From positions 1,572 through 65,571 of the forward strand of contig NZ_JAKFDR010000057.1 of NCBI RefSeq assembly GCF_036676035.1: 64,000 nucleotides of DNA, given 5' to 3'. Shown piece by piece: positions 6,481 to 64,000 of the stretch. A program made the translations under genes and the position numbers. The stretch is from Polaromonas sp. GTDB taxonomy: Bacteria; Pseudomonadota; Gammaproteobacteria; Burkholderiales; Burkholderiaceae_C. Each line of letters starts with the position of its first letter. Position 1 is the stretch's first letter. The notes under the pieces were generated by a model. The model was not told the DNA's origin and made no database searches. It saw nothing but the letters and a program-made list of their open reading frames with translations.

Positions 6481-6709
6481 CGCCCGCCGGGTCTGGGCTG
6501 CCAGACGACCAGGCGGGTCGTCGCCTTCCATGAGAGGCAACCCCACGGACGGGCCTGAAACGGCGAGCAGGGCCTGGCCAACCCGGTTGAGACTTTTCGC
6601 TATCAAATCAGGAGCTACTTGCGCACGTTTATCCGGGGCTGGAGCCTGAAAAGGCATCAAGATTTTCAGCGCCTGCCGGGAAGCTTGGGAAGCTCCACAG
6701 GAAGCGGCT

Positions 6710-7630: not shown

Positions 7631-8155
7631 ATGAAACGCTTTCATGTACACGTTCACGTAGAAAACCTTGAGCAGAACATCGCCTTTTACTCGGCGATGT
7701 TCAACCAGAGCCCGGCGCGTCTTGAAGCCGACTACGCCAAATGGATGCTGACCGACCCGCCGGTCAACTTTGCCATCTCCACCCGCGGCGATGCACCGGG
7801 CGTGGACCACCTGGGCATCCAGGTCGAATCTGCCGAGGAACTGGCCGCGCTCAAGGACAACGCCACGAAGGCCGACATGGCCCTGCTGGACGACGGCGAG
7901 ACCACCTGCTGCTACTCGCGCAGCGACAAATACTGGGTGACCGACCCGCAAGGTATTGCCTGGGAGCAGTTCCACACGCTGGACAGCATCCCGGTGTTCA
8001 GTGAAAAGAAACTTGAATCAAATCAGGCTGTAGCCCAGGCATGCTGTGCATCAGCAGCTCCTGAAAACATAGCAAAAGTGCAATTCGTCAAATCCCGCCC
8101 GGCGCCTTCAACCGCCTCGGGCCTTGCAGGCAGCGCCGGCAAAGCCTGCTGCTGA
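7631..8155 (+). CDS. arsI: ArsI/CadI family VOC protein (C-As lyase-like)
   Basis: MKRFHVH, DHLGIQV, TTCCY vicinal Cys, DPQGIAWE; extra ACCA and terminal CC. Confidence 0.82.
   Translation: MKRFHVHVHVENLEQNIAFYSAMFNQSPARLEADYAKWMLTDPPVNFAISTRGDAPGVDHLGIQVESAEELAALKDNATKADMALLDDGETTCCYSRSDKYWVTDPQGIAWEQFHTLDSIPVFSEKKLESNQAVAQACCASAAPENIAKVQFVKSRPAPSTASGLAGSAGKACC
8021..8074 (+). repeat. 54-bp GCTAY-N7-RTAGC repeat, in frame within arsI
   Basis: aatcaggctgtagcccag...agcagctcctgaaaacatagca aligns without gaps to intergenic copies such as 48792-48845 and 54642-54695. Confidence 0.7.
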
Positions 8156-9850: not shown

Positions 9851-10536
9851 GCACCAACACTTTGCGCACACCCCCCTGGCGGGTTCTGCTCGCCGAGTTT
9901 CTGGGCACCGCCGCCCTGCTCTGCGCCGTGATCGGCTCCGGCATCATGGCCGAGCGCCTGGCGGGCGGCAACGCCGCCATTGCCTTGCTGGCCAACACGC
10001 TGGCCACGGTGTTCGCGCTGTATGTGCTGATTGAAACGCTGGGCCCCGTCAGTGGCGCGCATTTCAACCCGCTGGTCACTCTAGCCTTATGGTCAAAAGG
10101 CACTCTAGCCCATGAAAAACGGGCGCAATCAGCTATATTTTTTATAGCATCCCAGTTGCTGGGTGCTGTGGCAGGTGCCTGGCTGGCGCATGCCATGTTT
10201 GATCTGCAGCTGCTGCAGTTCAGCACCAAGGTCCGCACGGGCCCGGGCCAGTGGATCGCCGAAGCCGTGGCCACGGCCGGGCTGGTGCTGGTGATCCTGC
10301 GCGCTCCGGCCGGCAAGGCGTCTGCCTTGGTGGCCTGCTACATCGGCGCGGCCTACTGGTTCACCGCCAGCACCTCATTTGCCAACCCGGCCGCCGTACT
10401 CGGGCGCATGCTGTCCGACAGTTTTGCCGGCATTGCACCAGCGAATGCCCCGGCGTTTGTAGTGGCCCAGACTGTGGGTGCCGGCGTTGGTGTGTTACTG
10501 GACCGCTGGCTGGGTCCCCGCCATGAGCGATGCTGA
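9847..10536 (+). CDS. MIP family channel (AqpS-like aquaglyceroporin)
   Basis: AEFLGT, SGAHFNPLVT, SFANPA; ATGA overlap with the desaturase stop. Confidence 0.88.
   Translation: MSTNTLRTPPWRVLLAEFLGTAALLCAVIGSGIMAERLAGGNAAIALLANTLATVFALYVLIETLGPVSGAHFNPLVTLALWSKGTLAHEKRAQSAIFFIASQLLGAVAGAWLAHAMFDLQLLQFSTKVRTGPGQWIAEAVATAGLVLVILRAPAGKASALVACYIGAAYWFTASTSFANPAAVLGRMLSDSFAGIAPANAPAFVVAQTVGAGVGVLLDRWLGPRHERC
10096..10149 (+). repeat. 54-bp repeat, in frame within the MIP gene
   Basis: aaaggcactctagcccatgaaaaacgggcgcaatcagctatattttttatagca; GCTAT-N7-ATAGC core and GCCC...GGGC arm; AT-rich in a GC-rich gene. Confidence 0.8.
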
Positions 10537-10661: not shown

Positions 10662-11795
10662 TCAGTCGCATCCCTTGAACTTGCGCCGCTGACAGTCACG
10701 CGCCATCTGCTGTGCTTGGGCGACTTGCTGCGATGACATCAGGCTTGAAACGGAGTCGCGCCTTTTCACTGCAGCTGCAAAGCCCGCCTCGGCACCAAGG
10801 CTGAACCACATGTGCGCACGAACATGGTCCTGCACGACGCCATTCCCATCGGCATACATCAGACCGAGGCTGTACTGCGCTTTCACATCCCCCTGCGCTG
10901 CGGCCAGGCGAAACCACTTGAGCGCTTCCGCGTAATCCTGCGCGACGCCTTCCTGATCGCGATACATCACACCGAGGTTGAACTGCGCCAACGCATACCC
11001 CTGCGCCGCAGCCAGTCGAAACCATTTGAGCGCTTCTGCATCATCCTGTTCGACACCTAGCCGATCGCGATACATCATGCCGAGGTTGGACTGCGCAGCC
11101 GTCTCCCCCTGCGCTGCGGCCAGCTGAAACCATTTGAGCGCTTCCGCGTAATCCTGCGCGACGCCTTGCCCTTTGAAATACATCACGCCGAGGTTGTATT
11201 GCGCATCCGCGTGCCCCTGCGCTACGGCCAGTCGAAACCATTTGAGCGCTTCCGCGTAATCCTGCGCGACACCGTGCCCTTGGAAATACATCACGCCAAG
11301 GTTGGACTGCGCTTTCGCATCCCCCTGCGCTACGGCCAGTCGAAACCATTTGAGCGCTTCTACATAATCCTGCGCAACGCCTTGCCCGTTGGCATACATC
11401 AGGCCGAGGTTGAGCTGCGCTTTCGCATCCCCCTGCGCTGCGGCCCGTCGATACCACTTGAGCGCTTCCGCGTAATCCTGCGCGACACCGTGCCCTTGGA
11501 AATACATCCCGCCGAGGTTGTACTGCCCAGTCGCATCCCCCTGCGCTGCGGCCAGCCGATACCACTTGAGCGCTTCGGCGTAATCCTGCGCGACGCCTTG
11601 CCCATTGGCATACATCGCGCCGAGGTTGGATTGCGCAATCGGATATCCCTGCTCTGCAAGGGAGCGAGTTATTTTCAGTGCCTTTGCATAATCACCGCGA
11701 CCATAAGCTGCAGCCGCATCTTCAACTGGACCTGCCCACGCCGTACCAACGCCCAGCAGCAGGAGAGTCATCACCGTAAGAAGCAGTCGTTTCAT
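10662..11795 (-). CDS. secreted Sel1-like repeat (SLR) protein
   Basis: Signal peptide MKRLLLTVMTLLLLGVGTAWA; eight 36-aa repeats AQxNLGxMYxxGxGVAQDYAEALKW; 108-nt period (ATACATC at 10854, 10962, ... 11610). Confidence 0.92.
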   Translation of the reverse strand: MKRLLLTVMTLLLLGVGTAWAGPVEDAAAAYGRGDYAKALKITRSLAEQGYPIAQSNLGAMYANGQGVAQDYAEALKWYRLAAAQGDATGQYNLGGMYFQGHGVAQDYAEALKWYRRAAAQGDAKAQLNLGLMYANGQGVAQDYVEALKWFRLAVAQGDAKAQSNLGVMYFQGHGVAQDYAEALKWFRLAVAQGHADAQYNLGVMYFKGQGVAQDYAEALKWFQLAAAQGETAAQSNLGMMYRDRLGVEQDDAEALKWFRLAAAQGYALAQFNLGVMYRDQEGVAQDYAEALKWFRLAAAQGDVKAQYSLGLMYADGNGVVQDHVRAHMWFSLGAEAGFAAAVKRRDSVSSLMSSQQVAQAQQMARDCQRRKFKGCD

Positions 11796-17145: not shown

Positions 17146-18063
17146 ATGGCAGCCAGGTACAAGGGCGTATTTCCGGTGGTGCCCACCACCTTCAACGACG
17201 CGGGCGAGCTCGACCTCGAAAGCCAGAAGCGCTGCGTCGATTTCATGATCGACGCGGGCTCGACCGGCCTGTGCATTCTGGCGAATTTTTCCGAGCAGTT
17301 TTTGCTGTCGGATGACGAACGCGAAACGCTTACGCAAACCATCCTGAAGCACGTGGCGGGCCGGGTGCCGGTGATCGTCACCACCACGCACTTTGGCACG
17401 CGGGTCTGCACCGAGCGCAGCCGCCGCGCACAGGATGCCGGCGCGGCCATGGTGATGGTGATGCCGCCCTACCACGGCGCCACCCTGCGAGCGAGCGAGG
17501 AGAAGATTTACGAGTTCTACGCCGCGCTGTCAAACGCCATCGACATCCCCATCATGATCCAGGATGCCCCCATGAGCGGCACGACGCTGCCTGCGGCCTT
17601 CCTGGCGCGCATGGCCAAGGAGATCAAGCAGGTTTCCTATTTCAAGATCGAAACCGCCGGTGCGGCTTCCAAGCTGCGCGAGCTGATTCGCCTGGGCGGC
17701 GACGCGATTGAAGGCCCGTGGGACGGCGAAGAAGCCATCACCCTGCTGCCCGACCTGGACGCTGGCGCCACAGGCGCCATGACCGGCGGAGGCTACCCCG
17801 ACGGCATACGCCGCATCGTTGATGCCTATGCCGCAGGCCGCCGTGAAGAAGCGGTAGCGGAGTACACACGCTGGCTACCACTGATCAATTACGAAAACCG
17901 CCAGGGCGGCATCCTCACCGCCAAGGCGCTGATGAAGGAAGGAGGAATCATCGCCTGCGAAGCCCCGCGCCACCCGTTTCCCGCCATGCACCCCGAGGTG
18001 CGCAAAGGCCTGATCGAAACCGCCCAGCGGCTTGACCCCATGGTCTTGCGCTGGGGTAAATAG
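17146..18063 (+). CDS. DHDPS-family L-2-keto-3-deoxyarabonate (L-KDA) dehydratase-like
   Basis: GVFPVVPTTF, LCILANFSEQF, YFKIET, GPWDGEEAITL; as I recall it, close to the Azospirillum L-KDA dehydratase. Confidence 0.82.
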   Translation: MAARYKGVFPVVPTTFNDAGELDLESQKRCVDFMIDAGSTGLCILANFSEQFLLSDDERETLTQTILKHVAGRVPVIVTTTHFGTRVCTERSRRAQDAGAAMVMVMPPYHGATLRASEEKIYEFYAALSNAIDIPIMIQDAPMSGTTLPAAFLARMAKEIKQVSYFKIETAGAASKLRELIRLGGDAIEGPWDGEEAITLLPDLDAGATGAMTGGGYPDGIRRIVDAYAAGRREEAVAEYTRWLPLINYENRQGGILTAKALMKEGGIIACEAPRHPFPAMHPEVRKGLIETAQRLDPMVLRWGK

Positions 18064-24328: not shown

Positions 24329-24362
24329 AGGTCATGCAGTTGCGAAACCGGGTAGAGACATT

Positions 24363-24416
24363 TGCTATTTAATTGATAGCTTGTTGCAACCGTATCCAGA
24401 CGGCTGCGGCCATAAA
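24363..24416 (-). repeat. 54-bp GCTAT-N7-ATAGC repeat (intergenic)
   Basis: tgctatttaattgatagcttgttgcaacc...ggctgcggccataaa. Confidence 0.75.
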
Positions 24417-25805: not shown

Positions 25806-25937
25806 AGCTCGGATATTCGAGGGCGCGCGGTACCCTTCCAATACGCTTTAATCCGGATTCAGGCAATGTTTGATGCGCATCCCGCACTCAGAAAAGGCGG
25901 ATGCCTTCGGGTTGCGCTAACCGCGCGCCCTTTATTT

Positions 25938-25991
25938 TGCTATTAATTTAATAGCTCCTTGTGCCCGTTTTTAAAGGGCCAGAAGCCTATT
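25938..25991 (-). repeat. 54-bp repeat (intergenic)
   Basis: tgctattaatttaatagctccttgtgcccgtttttaaagggccagaagcctatt. Confidence 0.8.
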
Positions 25992-26008
25992 TACCTCAAG
26001 AAAACGGA

Positions 26009-35358: not shown

Positions 35359-36420
35359 ATGCCCCTGCTCCCCTACGCCCTGGCCCGCCCCTTTTTATTT
35401 GGTCTGGACCCTGAAACCGCCCACGAACTGACCATGGCCTCGCTGGCACGCATCCAGCGCACGCCGCTTGAACTGGCCTATTGCTCGGGCCGGGTGAGCG
35501 ACCCGATCGAGCTGGCCGGACTGAAGTTTCCCAACCGGGTCGGCCTGGCCGCCGGGCTGGACAAAAACGCGCGCTGCATCGATGGCCTGGCCGCCATGGG
35601 TTTTGGCTTTGTCGAGGTGGGCACCGTCACGCCCAAGGCCCAGCCGGGCAACCCCAAGCCGCGCATGTTCCGCCTGCCCGAAGCCAACGCGCTGATCAAC
35701 CGCCTGGGCTTCAACAACGACGGGCTGGACGCCTTCATTGCCAATGTGCAGCAATCCAGATTTCGCCAGCAGAACCCGAAAAACCCCTTGCTGCTGGGCC
35801 TGAACATCGGCAAAAACGCCGCCACCCCGATTGAGAACGCGGTCGACGACTACCTGGTCTGCCTCGACGGCGTCTACCCGCACGCCGACTACGTCACCGT
35901 CAATATCTCCAGCCCCAACACCAAAAACCTGCGGGCGCTGCAAAGCGACGAAGCCCTGGACGGTTTGCTCGGCGCCCTGGCCGAGCGCCGCGAAGCGCTG
36001 GCCCGCCTGCACGGCAAACATGTGCCCCTCTTCGTCAAGATCGCCCCCGACCTGGATGAAGCGCAGGTTGACGTGATTGCCGCGACCCTCAAACGCCATG
36101 GCATGGACGGCGTGGTCGCCACCAACACCACGCTGAACCGCGAGGCCGTCAAACACCTGCGCCACGCCGAAGAAGCCGGCGGCCTGAGCGGCGCCCCCGT
36201 GCTTGAAGCCAGCAACCGCGTGATTGCCCAGTTGCGTGCGGCCCTGGGCACGGGCTTTCCCATCATCGGCGTGGGCGGCGTGATGAGCGGTGCCGACGCG
36301 GTCTCCAAAATCCGCGCCGGCGCTGACGTGGTGCAGATCTACACCGGCCTGATCTACAAAGGCCCGGAGCTTGTCGCCGAGGCTGCCAATTCCATTAAAC
36401 AGAGCAAAAACAGCCGTTAG
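35359..36420 (+). CDS. pyrD: dihydroorotate dehydrogenase (quinone)
   Basis: [41 protein letters not shown]. Confidence 0.97.
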
Positions 36421-36461
36421 CCCTTAAGAAGTATGCACAAGCAGCTATTGTTTTCGTAGCA
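36408..36461 (+). repeat. 54-bp repeat supplying the stop codons of both convergent genes
   Basis: aaacagccgtTAGcccttaag...gcagCTAttgttttcgtagca; contains the pyrD TAG (36418-20) and the opposite-strand TAG (36445-47). Confidence 0.75.
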
Positions 36462-37554
36462 AATCGCCGACATGCTCGCCAATTGCCAGCGCACTGGTCA
36501 GCCCCGGCGACTCGATGCCGAACAGGTTGACCAGCCCCGGCACGCCGTGCTCGGCCGGACCCTGGATCAAAAAGTCCTTGGCCGGCTCATGAGGGGGCCC
36601 AATCTTGGGGCGCAGGCCCGCGTAGCCGGGAATCAGGGCGCCGTCCTGCAGCACCGGCCAGTACTTGCGCACCTCGGCGTAAAACGCGTCGCCGCGCGCC
36701 GGGTCCACCACCAGATCGTCGGGGGAGTCCACCCACTGCACGTCGGGACCGAATTTGGCCTGGCCGCCCAGATCAATTGTCAGGTGTACGCCAAGCCCGG
36801 CGGCCTCGGGCACCGGGTAAATCAGGCGCTGAAATGGCGAGCGGCCTGAGAGCGTGAAGTAATTGCCTTTGGCGTAATAACTTGCCGGCACAAAGCGCGC
36901 GGACAGCCCCGCAAAACGCTGGGCCAGCGCCGGCGCGTACAGACCCGCCGCGTTGACCACGCTGCGCGCCTGCAGCTCGGTGCCGTCTTTTGCTATCAAA
37001 TGAATAGCTGCTGGCGAACATTCAGCATGGGCCAGGGGCGAATTGAGCACCACCATCCCGCCGGCGTTCTCGAGGTCGCCCTGCAGCGCCAGCATCAGGG
37101 CATGGCTGTCCACAATGCCGGTGCTGGGTGACTGCACGGCGGCCACGCAGTCCAGCTGCGGCTCCAGCGCCCTCGCCTGCTCGCGCGTGAGCAGCAGCAG
37201 ATCGTGCACGCCATTGGCGGCAGCCTTGGCGATGATGGTCTGCAACTGCGCCACCTGCGCCTGGCTGGTCGCCACAATCAGTTTGCCGCAGCGGCGGTGC
37301 GCAATGCCGCGCTCGCCGCAGTAGGCGTACAGCAGCGCCTTGCCCTGCACGCACAGCCTGGCCTTGAGCGAGCCTTGCGGGTAGTAAATGCCGGCGTGGA
37401 TGACCTCGCTGTTGCGCGAGCTGGTGCCCGTGCCAATCGCGTCTGCCGCCTCCAGCACCATCACCTCGCGGCCCTGCAAAGCCAGCGCACGCGCCACGGC
37501 CAGCCCCACCACACCCGCACCCACCACCACGCAATCGACCTGGTCCACGCTCAT
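36445..37554 (-). CDS. FAD-dependent oxidoreductase, L-2-hydroxyglutarate oxidase (LhgO)-like
   Basis: [49 protein letters not shown]. Confidence 0.85.
36991..37044 (-). repeat. 54-bp repeat, in frame within the LhgO-like gene
   Basis: tgctatcaaatgaatagctgctggcgaac...gggccaggggcgaatt encodes [18 protein letters not shown]. Confidence 0.8.
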
Positions 37555-40455: not shown

Positions 40456-40509
40456 CGCTACCAAATCAATAGCTGTTGGTGCCTATTCAGCAAGGGCTAC
40501 AGGTCAAAA
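40456..40509 (-). repeat. 54-bp repeat (intergenic)
   Basis: cgctaccaaatcaatagctgttggtgcc...gggctacaggtcaaaa. Confidence 0.75.
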
Positions 40510-42057: not shown

Positions 42058-42768
42058 TCACTTCATCTGCACCGAACCGCTGACATTGACCAGCACCGTG
42101 CTTTTGCCCGCTTCCACGGAAATCGGAGCGTCCGACATCTCGGCCTTGGCCTGCATGGCCATCATGCGGGGACGGGGCGTATGGCCCTGGTCATTGGCGT
42201 TGACGGCCACTTCGCGCAGCGTGTAGCTGCCAAAGCCGAAGTTTTTGGCGATCTCCGACGCCTTGGCCTTGAAGCGCTCGATGGCCTGGGCTTGCGCCTC
42301 GCCTTCGACCTTGGCGCGCTGCTCGCGGCTCAGGGCAAAACCCACATGGCCCAGCGTCAGGGTCTGAATCTTGCCGGCCGTGCTGGTGATGCGTGCAAAA
42401 TCCTTGCCTTCGAGCACCAGCTCGGTCGAGCCCTGCCAGCCGTTGATCTTGCCGTCTTTGCCATAGCGCGGGTAAAGGCTGAAGTTGCCGGTCCGCACGT
42501 CCAGCTGGCCGGGCAGCGCGGCTTTTTTGGCCTCTGCCAGCGCCGTGTCCAGCGCCTGCTTGAGCTGGGTCTGCACTGTGTTGGCATCGCTGCCGTCACG
42601 CGTGGTGTTCATGGTGATTGACAGCAGGTCCTGCTGCACTTCCACCGAGCCGCTGGCCGACAGCTGGGCCACGTTTTGCAGCGGTTCGCGCTGCATGGTC
42701 TGGGCAAAAACCCCGGTTGCCCCCGCAAACACTGCGCAGGCAGCTATTATTTTTGTAGTATTTTTCAA
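42058..42768 (-). CDS. SIMPL domain (DUF541) periplasmic protein
   Basis: TTG start with GAAAGG SD; signal peptide; VRTGNFSLYPRY, VNVSGSVQM. Confidence 0.85.
   Translation of the reverse strand: MKNTTKIIAACAVFAGATGVFAQTMQREPLQNVAQLSASGSVEVQQDLLSITMNTTRDGSDANTVQTQLKQALDTALAEAKKAALPGQLDVRTGNFSLYPRYGKDGKINGWQGSTELVLEGKDFARITSTAGKIQTLTLGHVGFALSREQRAKVEGEAQAQAIERFKAKASEIAKNFGFGSYTLREVAVNANDQGHTPRPRMMAMQAKAEMSDAPISVEAGKSTVLVNVSGSVQMK
42707..42760 (+). repeat. 54-bp repeat forming the SIMPL signal peptide
   Basis: aaaaccccggttgcccccgcaaacactgcgcaggcagctattatttttgtagta; read antisense as TTKIIAACAVFAGATGV. Confidence 0.75.
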
Positions 42769-42778
42769 GTTTGACCTT

Positions 42779-43975
42779 TCAGGTTTTAAGAAATTTGAGG
42801 GGTTCGAAGCGCCCGCGCACCACGGCGTCAGGGTTCACACCCCACCAGTCTTTTGCCACCGTGGCGTAGATCTGGCGGAAATCGGTGCTGTAGCCGGCGT
42901 TTTGCGTGCTGTCCAGTCGCGTCAGGTCGGGCGCCTGGCCATACAGCCCGCCGCGCACCGCACCGCCGGCCACAAAATGAGGCGCCACCGTCCCATGGTC
43001 CGTGCCGTTGGAGTTGTTCTGGCGTGCGCGGCGGCCAAACTCTGAGAAGGTCATGACCAGGGTGCGGTCCCAGGCGCCCAGCTCGGTCAGCGCGCTTTTC
43101 AAGGCGGCCAGGCCTTCCGCCAGTTGCCTGAGCAGGTTGGCGTGGGTGCCCGGCTGGTTCTGGTGCGTGTCAAAGCTGCCCAGCGTGAGCGTGATCACCG
43201 GCACGCCGCCCTTGCCCTTCTGGGACGCCACCACCTGCGCGGCGGCCTTGACGCCGTTGCCAAAAGCGCCCGCCGGGAACTCGGTGCTGAAGTTGTAGGG
43301 CTCACCGCGCAAGCCCTGGGCCGCCTGGCTGATGTCGCTTTCCACCCGCAGCAAATGCTGCAGCGCCGGGTTGCGCACCGCCACGGCGCTGCTCATGTCC
43401 TGCGCAAAGCGCGACTGGTTCACAAAGGCCTCGGGGTTGTTCAGGGCCACGGCACGGGCGCCCAGCAGCGGGCCAAAGTCATTGCCGCCAATCAGAACGC
43501 CTTCGGCGGTGAAGCCCGCCCGGGCGGCGTAACCGGCCCTCATGCCGCGCGTGGCCCAGCCCTCTTCCAGGTACTCGTCGGACCTGGACGCAGTTTCCCA
43601 GATCTCGATCGAACGAAAGTGCGACAGATTGGGCTGCGGGTAGCCCACGCCCTGCACAATCGCCAGCTCGCTTTTTTCCCAGAGCGGCAGCAGCGCCTTG
43701 AGCTCCGGGTGCAAGCCGGCCTGCGAATCAATTCTGATCACCTCGTCACGCTTGATGCCAATCGTGTTGCGCAGTTGGTAGTAGCTGGGGTCGGTATAGG
43801 GCACCACGGTGTTCAAGCCGTCGTTGCCGCCTTTGAGCTCGACCAGCACCAGGATGCGGTCGGCCGCCGCAGCGGCACGCTGGCCGGCGGCTTGCGCCCA
43901 GCCCGGGGCGTGGGCTGACAGCAGGGCAGCGCCCGTGGTGCTTGCAAACAGGTGGATGAAATCGCGTCGTTGCAT
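42779..43975 (-). CDS. DUF1501 protein with Tat signal
   Basis: MQRRDFI, ELKGGNDGLNTVVP, SHFRS, FDTH, SEFGRR, GTDHG. Confidence 0.9.
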   Translation of the reverse strand: MQRRDFIHLFASTTGAALLSAHAPGWAQAAGQRAAAAADRILVLVELKGGNDGLNTVVPYTDPSYYQLRNTIGIKRDEVIRIDSQAGLHPELKALLPLWEKSELAIVQGVGYPQPNLSHFRSIEIWETASRSDEYLEEGWATRGMRAGYAARAGFTAEGVLIGGNDFGPLLGARAVALNNPEAFVNQSRFAQDMSSAVAVRNPALQHLLRVESDISQAAQGLRGEPYNFSTEFPAGAFGNGVKAAAQVVASQKGKGGVPVITLTLGSFDTHQNQPGTHANLLRQLAEGLAALKSALTELGAWDRTLVMTFSEFGRRARQNNSNGTDHGTVAPHFVAGGAVRGGLYGQAPDLTRLDSTQNAGYSTDFRQIYATVAKDWWGVNPDAVVRGRFEPLKFLKT

Positions 43976-44001
43976 GATGGTTGACCTATCTGCTTATTGG
44001 C

Positions 44002-45642
44002 TTATTTGAGCTGGTAGGCCGGATCAAGCGTGAGGGTGCGCAGATACGCCACTCCCACCGTGCCGACGGCTATGGTTTGCGTGGGTGGCACCGCCAGCAA
44101 GGTCTGGGTCAAACGGCTTTTGAGCTCGTCCGAAGGCTCCCGGTCGGTGTAGCCGCCGTACTGCGCCAGCCAGCGGTCCGGATCAAAGGTGATGCGGGCC
44201 ATGCCCTCGGCCACGCGCATGATGCCGTCACGGCCCAGCAGGCGCAGCGCCTGCCGGTTGCTGCCGCGCCCTGCCCCGTCGGCCTTGCCGGCGCCCAGCT
44301 CGGCCTGCAGCTGCTGGATTGGCTGTGCGGGCCGCATGGCATCCGGGGCGGGCGCTTCAATCCTGCGTCCGCCCGGGCCCATGGCCAGTGGCGCCATCTT
44401 CGACTCGTTCTTGAGTTCCACCGCCCTAAACAGCTGCTCGGTAAAGCGCTTGCGCTCCAGCAAGGTGGTGGCGTTGATCCAGTCGTTCTGGCCCGGCCAG
44501 CCTTTCACATTGGGCGGCACCAGCAGGTTCTGGCCCAGTTGCGCCGCCTTGAGCGCAAAGGGCATCACATCGGTGTAGCTGAAGTCGAACTGCCGCACCG
44601 TGCCCACCACCAGGTCCACCGGCGATTTGATCAGGCTGCCGCGGTTGCTCTCGGCCCAGAACGCATCGCCAAGCAGCAGTTCGCGCACGGCGGTGCTGAT
44701 GTCGTAGCCGCTTTGGCGGAAACGCTGCGCGATGCGCTCGACCTGCGCCGCATCGGGCACGGGCGAGACCAGCTCCTTCCAGAGCTTGCTGACGATGAAG
44801 CGGGCGGCCGCCGGCTGATCGAGCATCAGGTCCAGCACGGCATCGCCGTCAAAGTTGCCGCTGCGCCCCAGCACGGTTTTGCTGCCCGTGTCATGAAAGG
44901 CCGGCCGGAACCTGAAACTGAAATCTTCGCGCTCCACACTCCAGCCGGTAAAGGCCCGGGCCGACTCGCGGATGTCCTGCTCGGTGTAGCCGCCGCCCTG
45001 GCTGGCTTCGCCCAGGGTGAACAGCTCCATCACCTCGCGGGCGAAGTTTTCATTGGGGGCTTCCTTGCGGCTGTTGGCGCCGTCCAGGTACACCAGCATG
45101 GCCGGGTCTTTGGCCACCGCGTGCAGCAAGACGCGAAAGTTGCCCAGTGCGTTGGCGCGCAGCAGCTGGTGCTGGCGCCACATGGCCTGCGAGCTGATCA
45201 CCTTTTGCTGGGAGGTGGCAAAGTGGTTGTGCCAGAACAGCGTCATGCGCTCGGCCAGCGGCGTGGGCGTCTCTATCATCTCGCGCACCCACCAGGTCTT
45301 GAGCTCCAGCCCCTCGCGCTGCTGCTGCTGGCGCATGGCCTGCTGCTCGTCCTTGCTTTTGAGCAGCCTGTAGGGAATGGGTGGCGGCTGCAAGGCAAAG
45401 GCCGGCACCGAGTACAGCGGCTTCGCCGCCTGCGCTTTGCGGATCAGCTCAGACACCGCCTGCCGCGTGTCCTGGCCGGTCAGCGCGTCGACCTCGGCCT
45501 GATCCGGTGCAAAACCGGTGCGCACCAGCAAGTGCCGCGCCTGCAGCGCCGACAGCTGGGCCGGCACCCCGCCCACCGCCGCCTGCAGGCCGGTGGCCCC
45601 GGCCAGCAGCACACAACAAGCAATGATTTTGATGGTTTTCAT
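44002..45642 (-). CDS. DUF1800 protein
   Basis: ERMTLFWHNHFATS, DPAMLVYLD, PNENFAREVMELFTLG, SARAFTGW, PPNVKGW. Confidence 0.92.
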   Translation of the reverse strand: MKTIKIIACCVLLAGATGLQAAVGGVPAQLSALQARHLLVRTGFAPDQAEVDALTGQDTRQAVSELIRKAQAAKPLYSVPAFALQPPPIPYRLLKSKDEQQAMRQQQQREGLELKTWWVREMIETPTPLAERMTLFWHNHFATSQQKVISSQAMWRQHQLLRANALGNFRVLLHAVAKDPAMLVYLDGANSRKEAPNENFAREVMELFTLGEASQGGGYTEQDIRESARAFTGWSVEREDFSFRFRPAFHDTGSKTVLGRSGNFDGDAVLDLMLDQPAAARFIVSKLWKELVSPVPDAAQVERIAQRFRQSGYDISTAVRELLLGDAFWAESNRGSLIKSPVDLVVGTVRQFDFSYTDVMPFALKAAQLGQNLLVPPNVKGWPGQNDWINATTLLERKRFTEQLFRAVELKNESKMAPLAMGPGGRRIEAPAPDAMRPAQPIQQLQAELGAGKADGAGRGSNRQALRLLGRDGIMRVAEGMARITFDPDRWLAQYGGYTDREPSDELKSRLTQTLLAVPPTQTIAVGTVGVAYLRTLTLDPAYQLK

Positions 45643-46986: not shown

Positions 46987-47154
46987 CTAGTGCGGTGTTG
47001 CACGCTATCTGGCACATAAAAAAATGCGTCTTTTCGGCCATGGCGGCGTTGCAAATCCGCGCGATACCTACGGGTATCGCTGTGGTTTGCGCCTTGCCCT
47101 GACCAAAAGTCCATCATTTTTATTTGTGCCATCAAGCATGCAACACCACACTAG
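46987..47154. mobile_element. MITE family A, copy 2 (reverse orientation)
   Basis: CTAGTGCGGTGTTGCACGCT...AGCATGCAACACCACACTAG. Confidence 0.88.
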
Positions 47155-47206
47155 CGATCGCCACGCGTCAAAATCAGTCACCTAACTCCGGTTTACACAC
47201 TTGCGC

Positions 47207-48752: not shown

Positions 48753-48791
48753 GCACGCACGGCAAGGCGTTTTATTCAAAATATGTAGTCA

Positions 48792-48845
48792 AATCGGCCT
48801 CCAGTCCTTATTAAATGGGCGCAAGATGCTCCTAAAACAATAGCG
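48792..48845 (+). repeat. 54-bp repeat supplying the ispF stop
   Basis: aatcggcctccagtcc...gcgcaagatgctcctaaaacaatagcg; last ispF codons and TAG lie within it. Confidence 0.75.
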
Positions 48846-54206: not shown

Positions 54207-54646
54207 CCGGCTCAATCCTGACGCCACTCCTGCTCGACACCAACATCATCTCCGACATGATGCGCGACCTGCAAGGCCCAGCGGCAAGGCGTGCCATGGC
54301 AGCCGACCCATCAAGCGCGAGCCGACCGTTGTACACCAGTGCGGTGGTTCAGTGCGAGCTGGAGTACGGCCTTGCACGGCGCAAGAACGCTCGCCTGGAG
54401 GTGGCTTACCAGGGCGTCATGGCCACGGTTGAGGTGCTGCCAATCACCAGCGACGTCGCCGAGCACTACGCCCGTCTGCGCACCCAATTGGAAGCCCTTG
54501 GCCAGCCTATCGGCCCCAACGACGCACTGATTGCCGCCCATGCGTTGGCCCTGGATGCCACCCTGGTCAGCGCCGATGCCGAATTCCGTCGTGTACCAGG
54601 GCTGCGGGTTGAAAACTGGCTGGAACCAGAAAATACAGCCAAATAG
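54203..54646 (+). CDS. vapC: PIN-domain toxin VapC
   Basis: LLDTNIIS, ELEYG, IGPNDALIAAHA, LVSAD..EF.RVPGL.VENW. Confidence 0.92.
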   Translation: MTGSILTPLLLDTNIISDMMRDLQGPAARRAMAADPSSASRPLYTSAVVQCELEYGLARRKNARLEVAYQGVMATVEVLPITSDVAEHYARLRTQLEALGQPIGPNDALIAAHALALDATLVSADAEFRRVPGLRVENWLEPENTAK

Positions 54647-54695
54647 GCTTGCAGCCCATTCGTTTATTGCGCTACCAGCTATCAAAATAATAGTA
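54642..54695 (+). repeat. 54-bp repeat supplying the vapC stop
   Basis: aaTAGgcttgcagcccat...gcgctaccagctatcaaaataatagta. Confidence 0.8.
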
Positions 54696-57155: not shown

Positions 57156-57320
57156 CTAGTGTGGTATTGCATGCTTGACGGCACTAATAAAACCGATGGA
57201 TTTTTGTTCAGGGCAAGGCGCAAACCACAGCAATAGTTCCACTATTGCGCGGATTTGCAACGCCGCCATGGACAAAAAGACGCGGTTTTATGTGCCGGAT
57301 AGCGTGCAACACCACACTAG
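57156..57320. mobile_element. MITE family A, copy 3
   Basis: CTAGTGTGGTATTGCATGCT...AGCGTGCAACACCACACTAG. Confidence 0.88.
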
Positions 57321-57690: not shown

Positions 57691-57714
57691 GCCCAAGCGT
57701 TTGCGAATATTTTT

Positions 57715-57768
57715 TGCTACCCTTTTAATAGCTTGAAACGCTCGAATTAAAAGGGCTTGAGCCTTGTT
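57715..57768 (-). repeat. 54-bp repeat (intergenic)
   Basis: tgctacccttttaatagcttgaaacgc...gggcttgagccttgtt. Confidence 0.7.
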
Positions 57769-63345: not shown

Positions 63346-63399
63346 CGCTATGTATTTGATAGCTGCTTGCGTACTATTCGCAAGGGCTGCAGGTTCATT
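63346..63399 (-). repeat. 54-bp repeat (intergenic)
   Basis: cgctatgtatttgatagctgcttgcgtac...gggctgcaggttcatt. Confidence 0.8.
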
Positions 63400-63861: not shown

Positions 63862-63956
63862 GGCATGACTCCGACAATAAGATGAAAGCGATTATTGCGC
63901 GATGACAAGCTCGGCCCCGTCTACGATGAGTTTTGTGGTGCCATGCGAATCAAATT

Positions 63957-64000
63957 TGCTATGTATTTGATAGCTATTTACGCCCTATTTGCAAAGGCTT
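63957..64000 (-). repeat. 54-bp repeat, cut by the window edge
   Basis: tgctatgtatttgatagctatttacgccc... Confidence 0.7.

Follow-up and report, generated by a model that had tools for sequence, protein, structure and literature searches.

We describe here a short DNA repeat that is dispersed through a Polaromonas genome and that has probably been taken up repeatedly as coding sequence for signal peptides, beginning with a three-gene cluster on a 64,000-nt stretch of that genome. This whole stretch is called the window; coordinates are positions in it, and labels such as C99 denote contigs of the same assembly, a 4.3-Mb draft in 136 contigs of a free-living Polaromonas with 63% GC. Reading of open reading frames (ORFs) and Pfam matches place the genes DUF1800-DUF1501-SIMPL, in that order, on the minus strand between 42058 and 45642, and the same order is conserved on four metagenome contigs of related Polaromonas (loci L046-L049). 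The features of the cluster are as follows.

42058..42768, minus strand: SIMPL (DUF541) gene, 236 amino acids, TTG start at 42768 (Pfam PF04402, E=5.4e-34, domain from residue 36)
within 42058..42768, minus strand: predicted Sec (general secretion) signal peptide of SIMPL, MKNTTKIIAACAVFAGATGVFA, with cleavage before QT (from sequence pattern)
42706..42759, minus strand: repeat copy in SIMPL that spans model positions 3-56 and translates in frame to TTKIIAACAVFAGATGVF (leave-out nhmmer model)
42779..43975, minus strand: DUF1501 gene, the middle gene of the cluster, with a twin-arginine translocation (Tat) type N-terminus, MQRRDFIHLF..., that is not repeat-derived (Pfam PF07394)
44002..45642, minus strand: DUF1800 gene, 546 amino acids, ATG start at 45642 (Pfam PF08811, E=1.2e-120, domain from residue 37)
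45583..45636, minus strand: probable decayed repeat copy in DUF1800, read as TIKIIACCVLLAGATGLQ (from in-register score, peptide neighbours and orthologues)

The SIMPL protein begins MKNTTKIIAACAVFAGATGVFAQT, and the N-terminus of DUF1800 is a predicted Sec signal peptide, MKTIKIIACCVLLAGATGLQA, with cleavage expected before A; both N-termini lie outside the Pfam domains. Each has a positively charged n-region, an uncharged h-region of 10-15 residues and small residues at positions -3 and -1, as expected of Sec substrates of signal peptidase I (SPase I), and each was passed by a heuristic signal peptide caller, with predicted layouts of MKNTTK / IIAACAVFAGATGVF / VFA followed by QT in SIMPL and MKTIK / IIACCVLLAGATGL / LQA followed by A in DUF1800. 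Judged by these patterns, both peptides would direct export. Re-reading of the two peptides bore out the report of the initial annotation that they match at 11 of 18 positions without a gap.

The repeat element

A repeat model was seeded with five window copies and iterated with nhmmer over the assembly, with the SIMPL and DUF1800 loci masked. The model has 56 positions, with the consensus TTGCTATCAATTTAATAGCTGCTTGCGCACATTTTACAAGGGCTAGAGGCCTATTT, and gave 539 matches to the unmasked genome at E<=1e-3 and 669 at E<=1; because the reversed, uncomplemented genome gave no match at E<=1 with the same model, these E-values can be trusted. The element is about 56 nt long and AT-rich (about 45% GC), and it is dispersed as single copies, 14 of which lie inside the window (nhmmer). 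Sequence between its conserved blocks, GCTAT-N7-ATAGCTG...GCGC...GGGC...GGC...ATTT, is variable, the middle of the repeat included. The consensus contains exactly one stop-free frame per strand, which reads AINLIAACAHFTRARGLF on one strand and NRPLALVKCAQAAIKLIA on the other.

The palindrome is limited to a 5-bp stem, GCTAT/ATAGC; a long palindromic structure is absent, and no terminal inverted repeats can be made out in a consensus profile that spans 156 nt around the element. Among 281 gapless copies, mutual information revealed no paired columns, and the idea of a structured RNA was therefore dropped; a scan of the window against Rfam at gathering thresholds returned no family. Matches to the strict pattern GCTAT-N7-ATAGCTG-N3-GCGC number 89 in this genome; among 80 other genera of the family, 14 have 10-64 of them and four more have 1-4. 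The pattern read backwards never matches. There are genus-specific variants, such as CCA versus CTT within ATAGCTG-NNN-GCGC, a single-nucleotide signal. A literature search found no description of this repeat; the genome paper of Polaromonas JS666 (PMC2570305), which is cited for MITEs (transposable elements of the miniature inverted-repeat kind), lay outside that search.

The SIMPL signal peptide

The predicted signal peptide of SIMPL appears to be an exapted repeat copy; the DNA homology of the 5' end of the gene to the repeat is demonstrated. Positions 42712-42758 of the minus strand match the leave-out model over model positions 4-50 without a gap, with 30.5 bits and E=1.4e-6, in keeping with the initial annotation, which had called this DNA a clear copy. 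Translated in frame from model position 3, the copy begins with the codons ACT ACA AAA ATA ATA GCT GCC TGC GCA..., and it supplies the h-region of the predicted signal peptide together with the end of the n-region before it and part of the c-region after it; the hallmark stem is altered in this genome's SIMPL copy to ACTAC...ATAGC. The frame had been described as antisense, a matter merely of the orientation chosen for the repeat; in the orientation of the model, SIMPL uses the sense frame.

In 19 sampled Polaromonas genomes, SIMPL orthologues (70-83% identity) have the same type of N-terminus, for example MRTTKLIAACALAALTTGVFAQN, and their translation starts at an ATG or TTG that precedes the repeat-coded part by 2-5 codons. 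The 5' ends of at least 6 of these 19 match the model with 17-33 bits, as do those of three metagenome orthologues with 36-37 bits, and outside the genus the SIMPL 5' end matches (14.8-27.1 bits) in 6 of 10 repeat-bearing genera. In all nine repeat-free genera sampled, SIMPL signal peptides are ordinary and unrelated and have no model match, so the motif is not equally common in lineages that lack the repeat (6 of 10 against 0 of 9). Since the repeat-type peptide extends across Polaromonas and into 6 of the 10 repeat-bearing genera, the event at SIMPL is ancient and no recent insertion: it is older than the divergence of the genus, and the peptide has been retained from then on.

The DUF1800 signal peptide

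The DUF1800 signal peptide is likely, but not proven, to be a decayed copy; we put its repeat origin at about two chances in three. The initial annotation had described the DNA as a decayed copy, and this holds in part: nhmmer gives no match here, whereas the site stands out when it is scored in register. In that test, 54 nt were scored gapless and in frame against the model emissions at 919 non-repeat N-termini. The DUF1800 score peaks in the very register that the peptide alignment predicts, with z of about +3.5 and rank 7 of 919, and the few N-termini ranked above it also resemble sub-threshold copies.

The peptide neighbours point in the same direction. Among 947 N-termini called as signal peptide- or transmembrane (TM)-like by the heuristic, the best 18-mer identity to the SIMPL peptide TTKIIAACAVFAGATGVF is usually 3-6, and only five others reach at least 9 of 18, namely DUF1800 and four significant repeat copies. 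At least 10 of 18 identities to the DUF1800 peptide TIKIIACCVLLAGATGLQ are found at C117:4545 (12), SIMPL (11), C99:58447 (10) and C99:72628 (10), and every one of these is a significant repeat copy, although the base rate is 28 in 947.

The closest orthologues of DUF1800, which are 79-85% identical and were taken from the protein database and from metagenome contigs, begin M(R/K)(A/T)IK(R/K)IAS..., MTPLKIIASC... or MIAIKEIAVF.... Their DNA, which reads GTGAAAGCTATAAAAAAAATAGCG, ATGAGAACTATAAAAAGAATAGCG and ATGATAGCTATAAAAGAAATAGCTGTTTTCGC, bears the GCTAT-N7-ATAGC hallmark with two ATA codons, and the last of these scores 12.8 bits over model positions 3-42 (the reading listed with the feature for this orthologue is ATGATAGCTATAAAAGAAATAGCTG). 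The equivalent positions in this genome read ACCATCAAAATCATTGCT. Comparison of orthologue N-termini, which the initial annotation had proposed, upholds a repeat-type N-terminus for SIMPL in the sampled genomes of the genus and the hallmark in the closest DUF1800 orthologues; two more distant ones have different signal peptides.

Other repeat-coded signal peptides

A number of other exported proteins appear to carry such peptides, and 28 of the 947 signal-peptide-like N-termini overlap significant copies. In an M16 peptidase (C99:58054-58566), a 41.6-bit copy gives the start V-KIATKKIAACAILALATGLF-YQESARA, followed by AIPIQ. Six genus orthologues have a repeat-coded segment (22.7-37.4 bits), while five other genus orthologues and five out-of-family homologues have ordinary signal peptides, such as MLISKFSGPATRVVLAVFVGLAALLQSQTALA before ALPIQ, with no model match; in the orthologue at locus L060, the copy lies upstream of a second hydrophobic segment, and this orthologue looks like an intermediate. 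The BamB lipoprotein (C110:41993-42070) begins MNLKS-FKPLALVVRAPAAIVLIAI-LAAC on an antisense copy of 41.5 bits, an example of the other strand's open frame (NRPLALVKCAQAAIKLIA) supplying a putative signal peptide; eight BamB orthologues score 15-35 bits, and six have ordinary lipoprotein signals such as MTFNFSVRLLTAVLALAGLAAC. For M16 and BamB alike, the repeat-coded and the ordinary state both occur within Polaromonas, so that repeat-coded signal peptides are present in some orthologues and absent from others, and the signal peptides of outgroups are ordinary and unrelated, with no model match. Further candidates are two LivK-like binding proteins (MKKRF-ALKLIAACAITVSASTGF-AQD), a TRAP-type (tripartite ATP-independent periplasmic) binding protein and several lipoproteins. 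Copies also lie in the signal peptides of LolB-like and LolA-like proteins (C99:50443-50493 and C42:47669-47719), in the former supplying a possible lipobox, LIAGC; with BamB, several envelope-biogenesis genes are affected. Repeat-coded peptides of this kind would presumably direct Sec or lipoprotein export, and the M16 and BamB polymorphism, together with the 28 overlaps, supports the earlier suggestion that insertion could create or replace export signals.

The consensus peptide itself is a poor signal. In AINLIAACAHFTRARGLF the hydrophobic run is too short, and there are three basic residues (His and two Arg). When sense-frame copies were searched for a 10-residue window with a mean Kyte-Doolittle value of at least 2.0, such a window was present in 43% of N-terminal copies, 23% of non-coding copies and 8% of internal copies. 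These fractions differ by context, and it is therefore context that sorts the copies or reshapes them; whether a copy turns out hydrophobic depends on the element's variable middle, and the element is a good starting point, not a finished signal. The description of the repeat as a ready-made Sec signal was right in that one frame can supply a Sec-type signal, but "ready-made" was too strong, because the consensus peptide has its His and two Arg and only 23% of non-coding copies are hydrophobic. The motif K[IL]IA[AC]C.{4,5}GA.G, which had been put forward for proteome searches, proved too narrow, matching only the SIMPL and DUF1800 proteins in the whole six-frame translation; the looser [IL]IA[ACVSG][CGS]A has 127 matches there, 96 of them at repeat copies.

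Copies within coding sequences

Copies were assigned to coding sequence through stop-to-stop ORFs that span the copy and show a coding pattern of GC content at the three codon positions (GC1/GC2/GC3) in the flanks. Of the 539 copies, about 360 are non-coding. The copies in ORFs show a clear frame bias: 148 lie in the two open frames (69 sense and 79 antisense) and 31 in the other four. Roughly 79 of these 148 open-frame copies (38 sense and 41 antisense) are internal, flanked on either side by 60 or more coding codons. Recurring peptides are AI(N/K)LIA... and ...AQ(A/T)AIK(L/S)IA(N/D), and the host proteins include TlyA, MetH, PutA, MnmE, NadE and LeuRS-like and asparaginase-like proteins. About a quarter of the copies are thus in a translated context, within open frames of coding-like ORFs, and repeat masking or downstream start calls would therefore mis-annotate exported proteins in Polaromonas and related genera.

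In TlyA, comparison with PDB 7s0s shows about 18 extra residues exactly at the copy; the segment measures 69-189 nt over all 30 orthologues, 14 of which have a repeat match. About 20 orthologues have a NadE linker of 78 nt, regardless of whether the copy reaches 46.7 bits or gives no match. A search of TlyA and NadE for empty sites found no clean one with a target duplication, TlyA being length-variable everywhere and NadE length-invariant. The assembly holds two NadE versions (C47:16848-17606, where C47 ends at 17606, and C68:3335-4093) with 92% protein and 87% DNA identity. Within the repeat, the two fragments are identical at 40 of 56 positions, and the consensus matches 42 of 56 in the first and 31 of 56 in the second; only the C47 version has a significant copy.

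Other observations on these genes may be recorded here. The duplicate NadE segments may represent two strains binned together or a paralogue. A PutA-like gene apparently has two copies, at C2:22140 and C2:24100 (E=3.5e-7 and 4.5e-5), one in each orientation's open frame. At C28:16201-16250, there is a match (E=1.1e-5) to the first half of the repeat, ACTATCAATTTCATAGCTGCC, at the N-terminus of a 2Fe-2S ferredoxin of the putidaredoxin type (MITINFIAADG...).

Interpretation and alternative explanations

The explanation that we favor, with a probability of roughly 0.78, is that a dispersed repeat is translated within genes and has been exapted as the signal peptide of SIMPL and most likely also of DUF1800. 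Copies, arising by insertion or by conversion, would enter or overwrite coding DNA and would survive mainly in the two open frames, which would make the element a translated module of 18-19 residues. Hydrophilic variants would be retained inside proteins, as in the TlyA loop, and hydrophobic variants at 5' ends, where the (I/L)IA(A/V/S)(C/G)A core and the variable middle would form the h-region and Lys or Asn from the hairpin loop would contribute to the n-region. A GLF or GVF end followed by Ala-Gln would then give a signal-peptidase site, or a native lipobox would follow. The SIMPL copy would have been acquired before the genus diverged and then kept; the DUF1800 copy, in the same operon, would most likely be a second, independent acquisition whose DNA drifted towards host codon usage.

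Several points weigh against this explanation. The repeat-bearing genera may form one clade, so the contrast of 6/10 with 0/9 is partly phylogenetic. Gene calls were based on GC3, with no gene finder, and the heuristic caller is crude, its 947 calls certainly containing TM proteins and wrong starts; some of the "N-terminal" copies, such as C72:10970 and C11:32807, are probably copies in 5' untranslated regions (5'-UTRs) with an accidentally open frame. At DUF1800, the 5' DNA gives no nhmmer match genome-wide even at E<=10, so that a decayed copy is not demonstrable on that scale, and the proposed repeat origin rests on the peptide neighbours, the rank statistic and the orthologue motifs. Two more distant DUF1800 orthologues of the same genus, the only two that 24 sampled genus genomes yielded, have quite different signal peptides. 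Finally, several intragenic copies are associated with little or no change in host length relative to repeat-free homologues: besides the NadE linker there is the asparaginase, where the copy aligns to native 3nxk sequence with a 6-residue gap only, and the ferredoxin N-terminus presumably shows no length change relative to family members. Simple insertion is therefore not the whole explanation; either old insertions decay at very different rates, or conversion refreshes the copies.

The second of these options leads to an extension of our reading that we regard as unlikely, in which the repeat also overwrites DNA of similar length by gene conversion and repeatedly rewrites coding segments towards the consensus, among them the signal peptides of BamB and other essential proteins of envelope biogenesis and interdomain linkers like the one in NadE. 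Doubtful as it is, such a process would explain near-consensus copies at old, length-invariant positions, orthologues that span 47 bits to no match at the same site, and one-for-one swaps of signal peptides; if true, it would amount to a genome-wide, template-driven exchange of short protein modules.

It is improbable that SIMPL alone is repeat-derived and that recombination brought the DUF1800 peptide from SIMPL, at a distance of 3 kb, or from some other repeat-coded signal peptide. One conserved cluster holds both genes, the strict motif is unique to the two in the six-frame translation, and LLAG.TGL in DUF1800 resembles the SIMPL orthologue consensus; however, unlinked repeat-coded N-termini resemble the DUF1800 peptide as closely or more closely (12/18 on C117, and 10/18 for two on C99), and DUF1800 orthologues have the full GCTAT-N7-ATAGC stem, which this genome's SIMPL copy has in altered form.

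Very little probability attaches to convergence, by which both peptides and the repeat would be alike by chance, Sec signals being built of Lys and a core rich in Ala, Leu, Ile, Cys and Gly. Signal peptides are indeed compositionally biased, the DUF1800 DNA has no significant match to the hidden Markov model, and the middle of the repeat is variable. Against this, the 947 hydrophobic N-termini typically show only 3-6 identities, with 9 or more confined to DUF1800 and the four repeat copies; the copies use the rare codons ATA and GCT; and for SIMPL, where the leave-out match stands against an empty reversed genome and signal peptides are unrelated in repeat-free genera, convergence is largely refuted already.

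It is scarcely credible that the true starts lie downstream (at Met25 in SIMPL) and that the repeat is an untranslated 5'-UTR element, as several N-terminal cases look to be, as the TTG start of SIMPL might suggest, and as in-phase UTR copies would mimic because the consensus is open in that frame, given that every SIMPL homologue examined has an N-terminal hydrophobic signal which a start at Met25 would remove, that the frame is kept open with an ATG or TTG just upstream in at least 25 genomes of 7 genera, and that the repeat-coded segment of M16 and BamB is the sole hydrophobic segment before the conserved mature start or lipobox. Proteins of the SIMPL family are normally exported.

Translation and exaptation of a dispersed repeat would bear on how repeats shape proteomes outside Rickettsia. 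Point mutation and extension of the N-terminus are the usual explanations for the gain or change of a signal peptide; here the hydrophobic core would come repeatedly, and from both strands, from a DNA repeat that is selfish or structural, and would do so in conserved proteins, an outer-membrane assembly lipoprotein among them. The states "before" and "after" persist among species of one genus, which offers a natural series for the minimal requirements of an export signal.

Comparison with known repeats

The Rickettsia palindromic elements (RPEs) are in-frame repeats found in many genes, where the host protein is not destroyed (Ogata et al., 2000, as summarised in PMC10969869). As far as that summary describes them, RPEs resemble the Polaromonas element in being high-copy and dispersed, lying between genes as well as in frame inside unrelated, often housekeeping, genes to which they add a conserved peptide. 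They are about 100-150 bp long and occur in AT-rich, obligate intracellular Rickettsia, whereas the Polaromonas element measures about 56 nt and is found in a free-living, 63% GC host and in at least 14 other genera; unlike the RPEs as summarised there, it is read on both strands, has a sizeable N-terminal subset in predicted signal peptides, and has only the 5-bp stem in place of a long palindrome.

Enterobacterial repeat units related to the enterobacterial repetitive intergenic consensus (ERIC-like RU-1 and RU-2) carry open frames and occur intragenically, and RU-2 forms part of a SignalP-predicted signal peptide in YPO1552 of Y. pestis, whose homologues in other genera have unrelated signals (Delihas, 2007; PMC2759123). 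RU-1 and RU-2 are likewise small mobile repeats with open frames fused to genes and a contribution to signal peptides. They are 127-168 bp long and affect few, mostly small hypothetical loci, without a series of orthologue polymorphisms; the Polaromonas repeat, in contrast, lies at about 28 N-termini, including those of the conserved SIMPL, BamB, M16 peptidase and LivK-like binding proteins, with conservation across genera and with both presence and absence within one genus.

Repetitive extragenic palindromic (REP) sequences and their hairpin-forming doublets (REPINs) share short length (20-60 nt), great abundance, a mostly extragenic location and a small hairpin with the element. As a rule, REPs are strongly palindromic, are often arranged as inverted doublets and flank a gene for a Y1 transposase, the REP-associated tyrosine transposase (RAYT). 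No doublet organisation of copies was seen in the window. A single homologue of the IS200/IS605-type Y1_Tnp family (PF01797) is present, at C11:37789-38115, with no strong copy within 1.7 kb and matches of 15-18 bits about 2 kb away. An association with RAYT was accordingly rejected, this one Y1 transposase of the 136-contig draft not being flanked by copies, and no linked transposase was found for the repeat.

The beta-proteobacterial repeat element (BRE) has been reported in Bordetella and in Comamonadaceae, and Polaromonas sp. JS666 has the most copies; it is about 90 bp long with 69% GC, often tandem in the manner of a variable-number tandem repeat, and some of its copies lie wholly within coding sequences (Hot et al., 2011; PMC3110155). 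Identity with BRE was rejected, the present repeat consisting of dispersed single copies of about 56 nt and about 45% GC and not of GC-rich tandem units of about 90 bp. Small translated repeats are thus already known, and it is well supported that the Polaromonas repeat is a large and unusually rich new example of them.

Further copies and other repeats in the window

Beyond the three-gene cluster, the window contains the following copies.

25937..25992, plus strand: top-scoring window copy (nhmmer)
36990..37044, plus strand: copy inside a minus-strand coding ORF, read in the open frame of the other strand (42.5 bits, E=2.5e-10)
63347..63399, plus strand: non-coding copy just upstream of a minus-strand gene, translating to AMYLIAACVLFARAAGSF (40.7 bits, E=9.4e-10)
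8020..8075, minus strand: copy read in frame as NQAVAQACCASAAPENIAK, close to where a coding ORF has its C-terminal end (30.9 bits, E=1.1e-6)
6597-6649, 40457-40506, 57714-57768, 24362-24414 and 63956-64000 (the last runs off the window), plus strand: further copies
10103-10149, 36407-36462, 48791-48844 and 54641-54693, minus strand: further copies

E-values run from 2.2e-11 to 1.7e-5 over the best copy, at 25937..25992, and the further copies of the last two lines. In the ORF around the copy at 36990..37044, which shows a coding GC3 pattern, 184 codons are open upstream of the copy and 180 downstream of it. The intergenic copy at 63347 translates in the way that the initial annotation had given for it.

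The window also holds two other repeats. Positions 10696-11751 hold a different repeat, a unit of 108 nt (36 codons) in eight tandem copies whose identity to the reference copy is 61-79%. A MITE-like family of about 165 nt occurs at 410-574, 46987-47155 and 57156-57320, with inverted ends (CTAGTGTGGTGTTGCA... and ...TGCAACACCACACTAG); two of its copies are 93% identical, and the copy at 46987-47155 lies between a response-regulator and a sensor-kinase gene.

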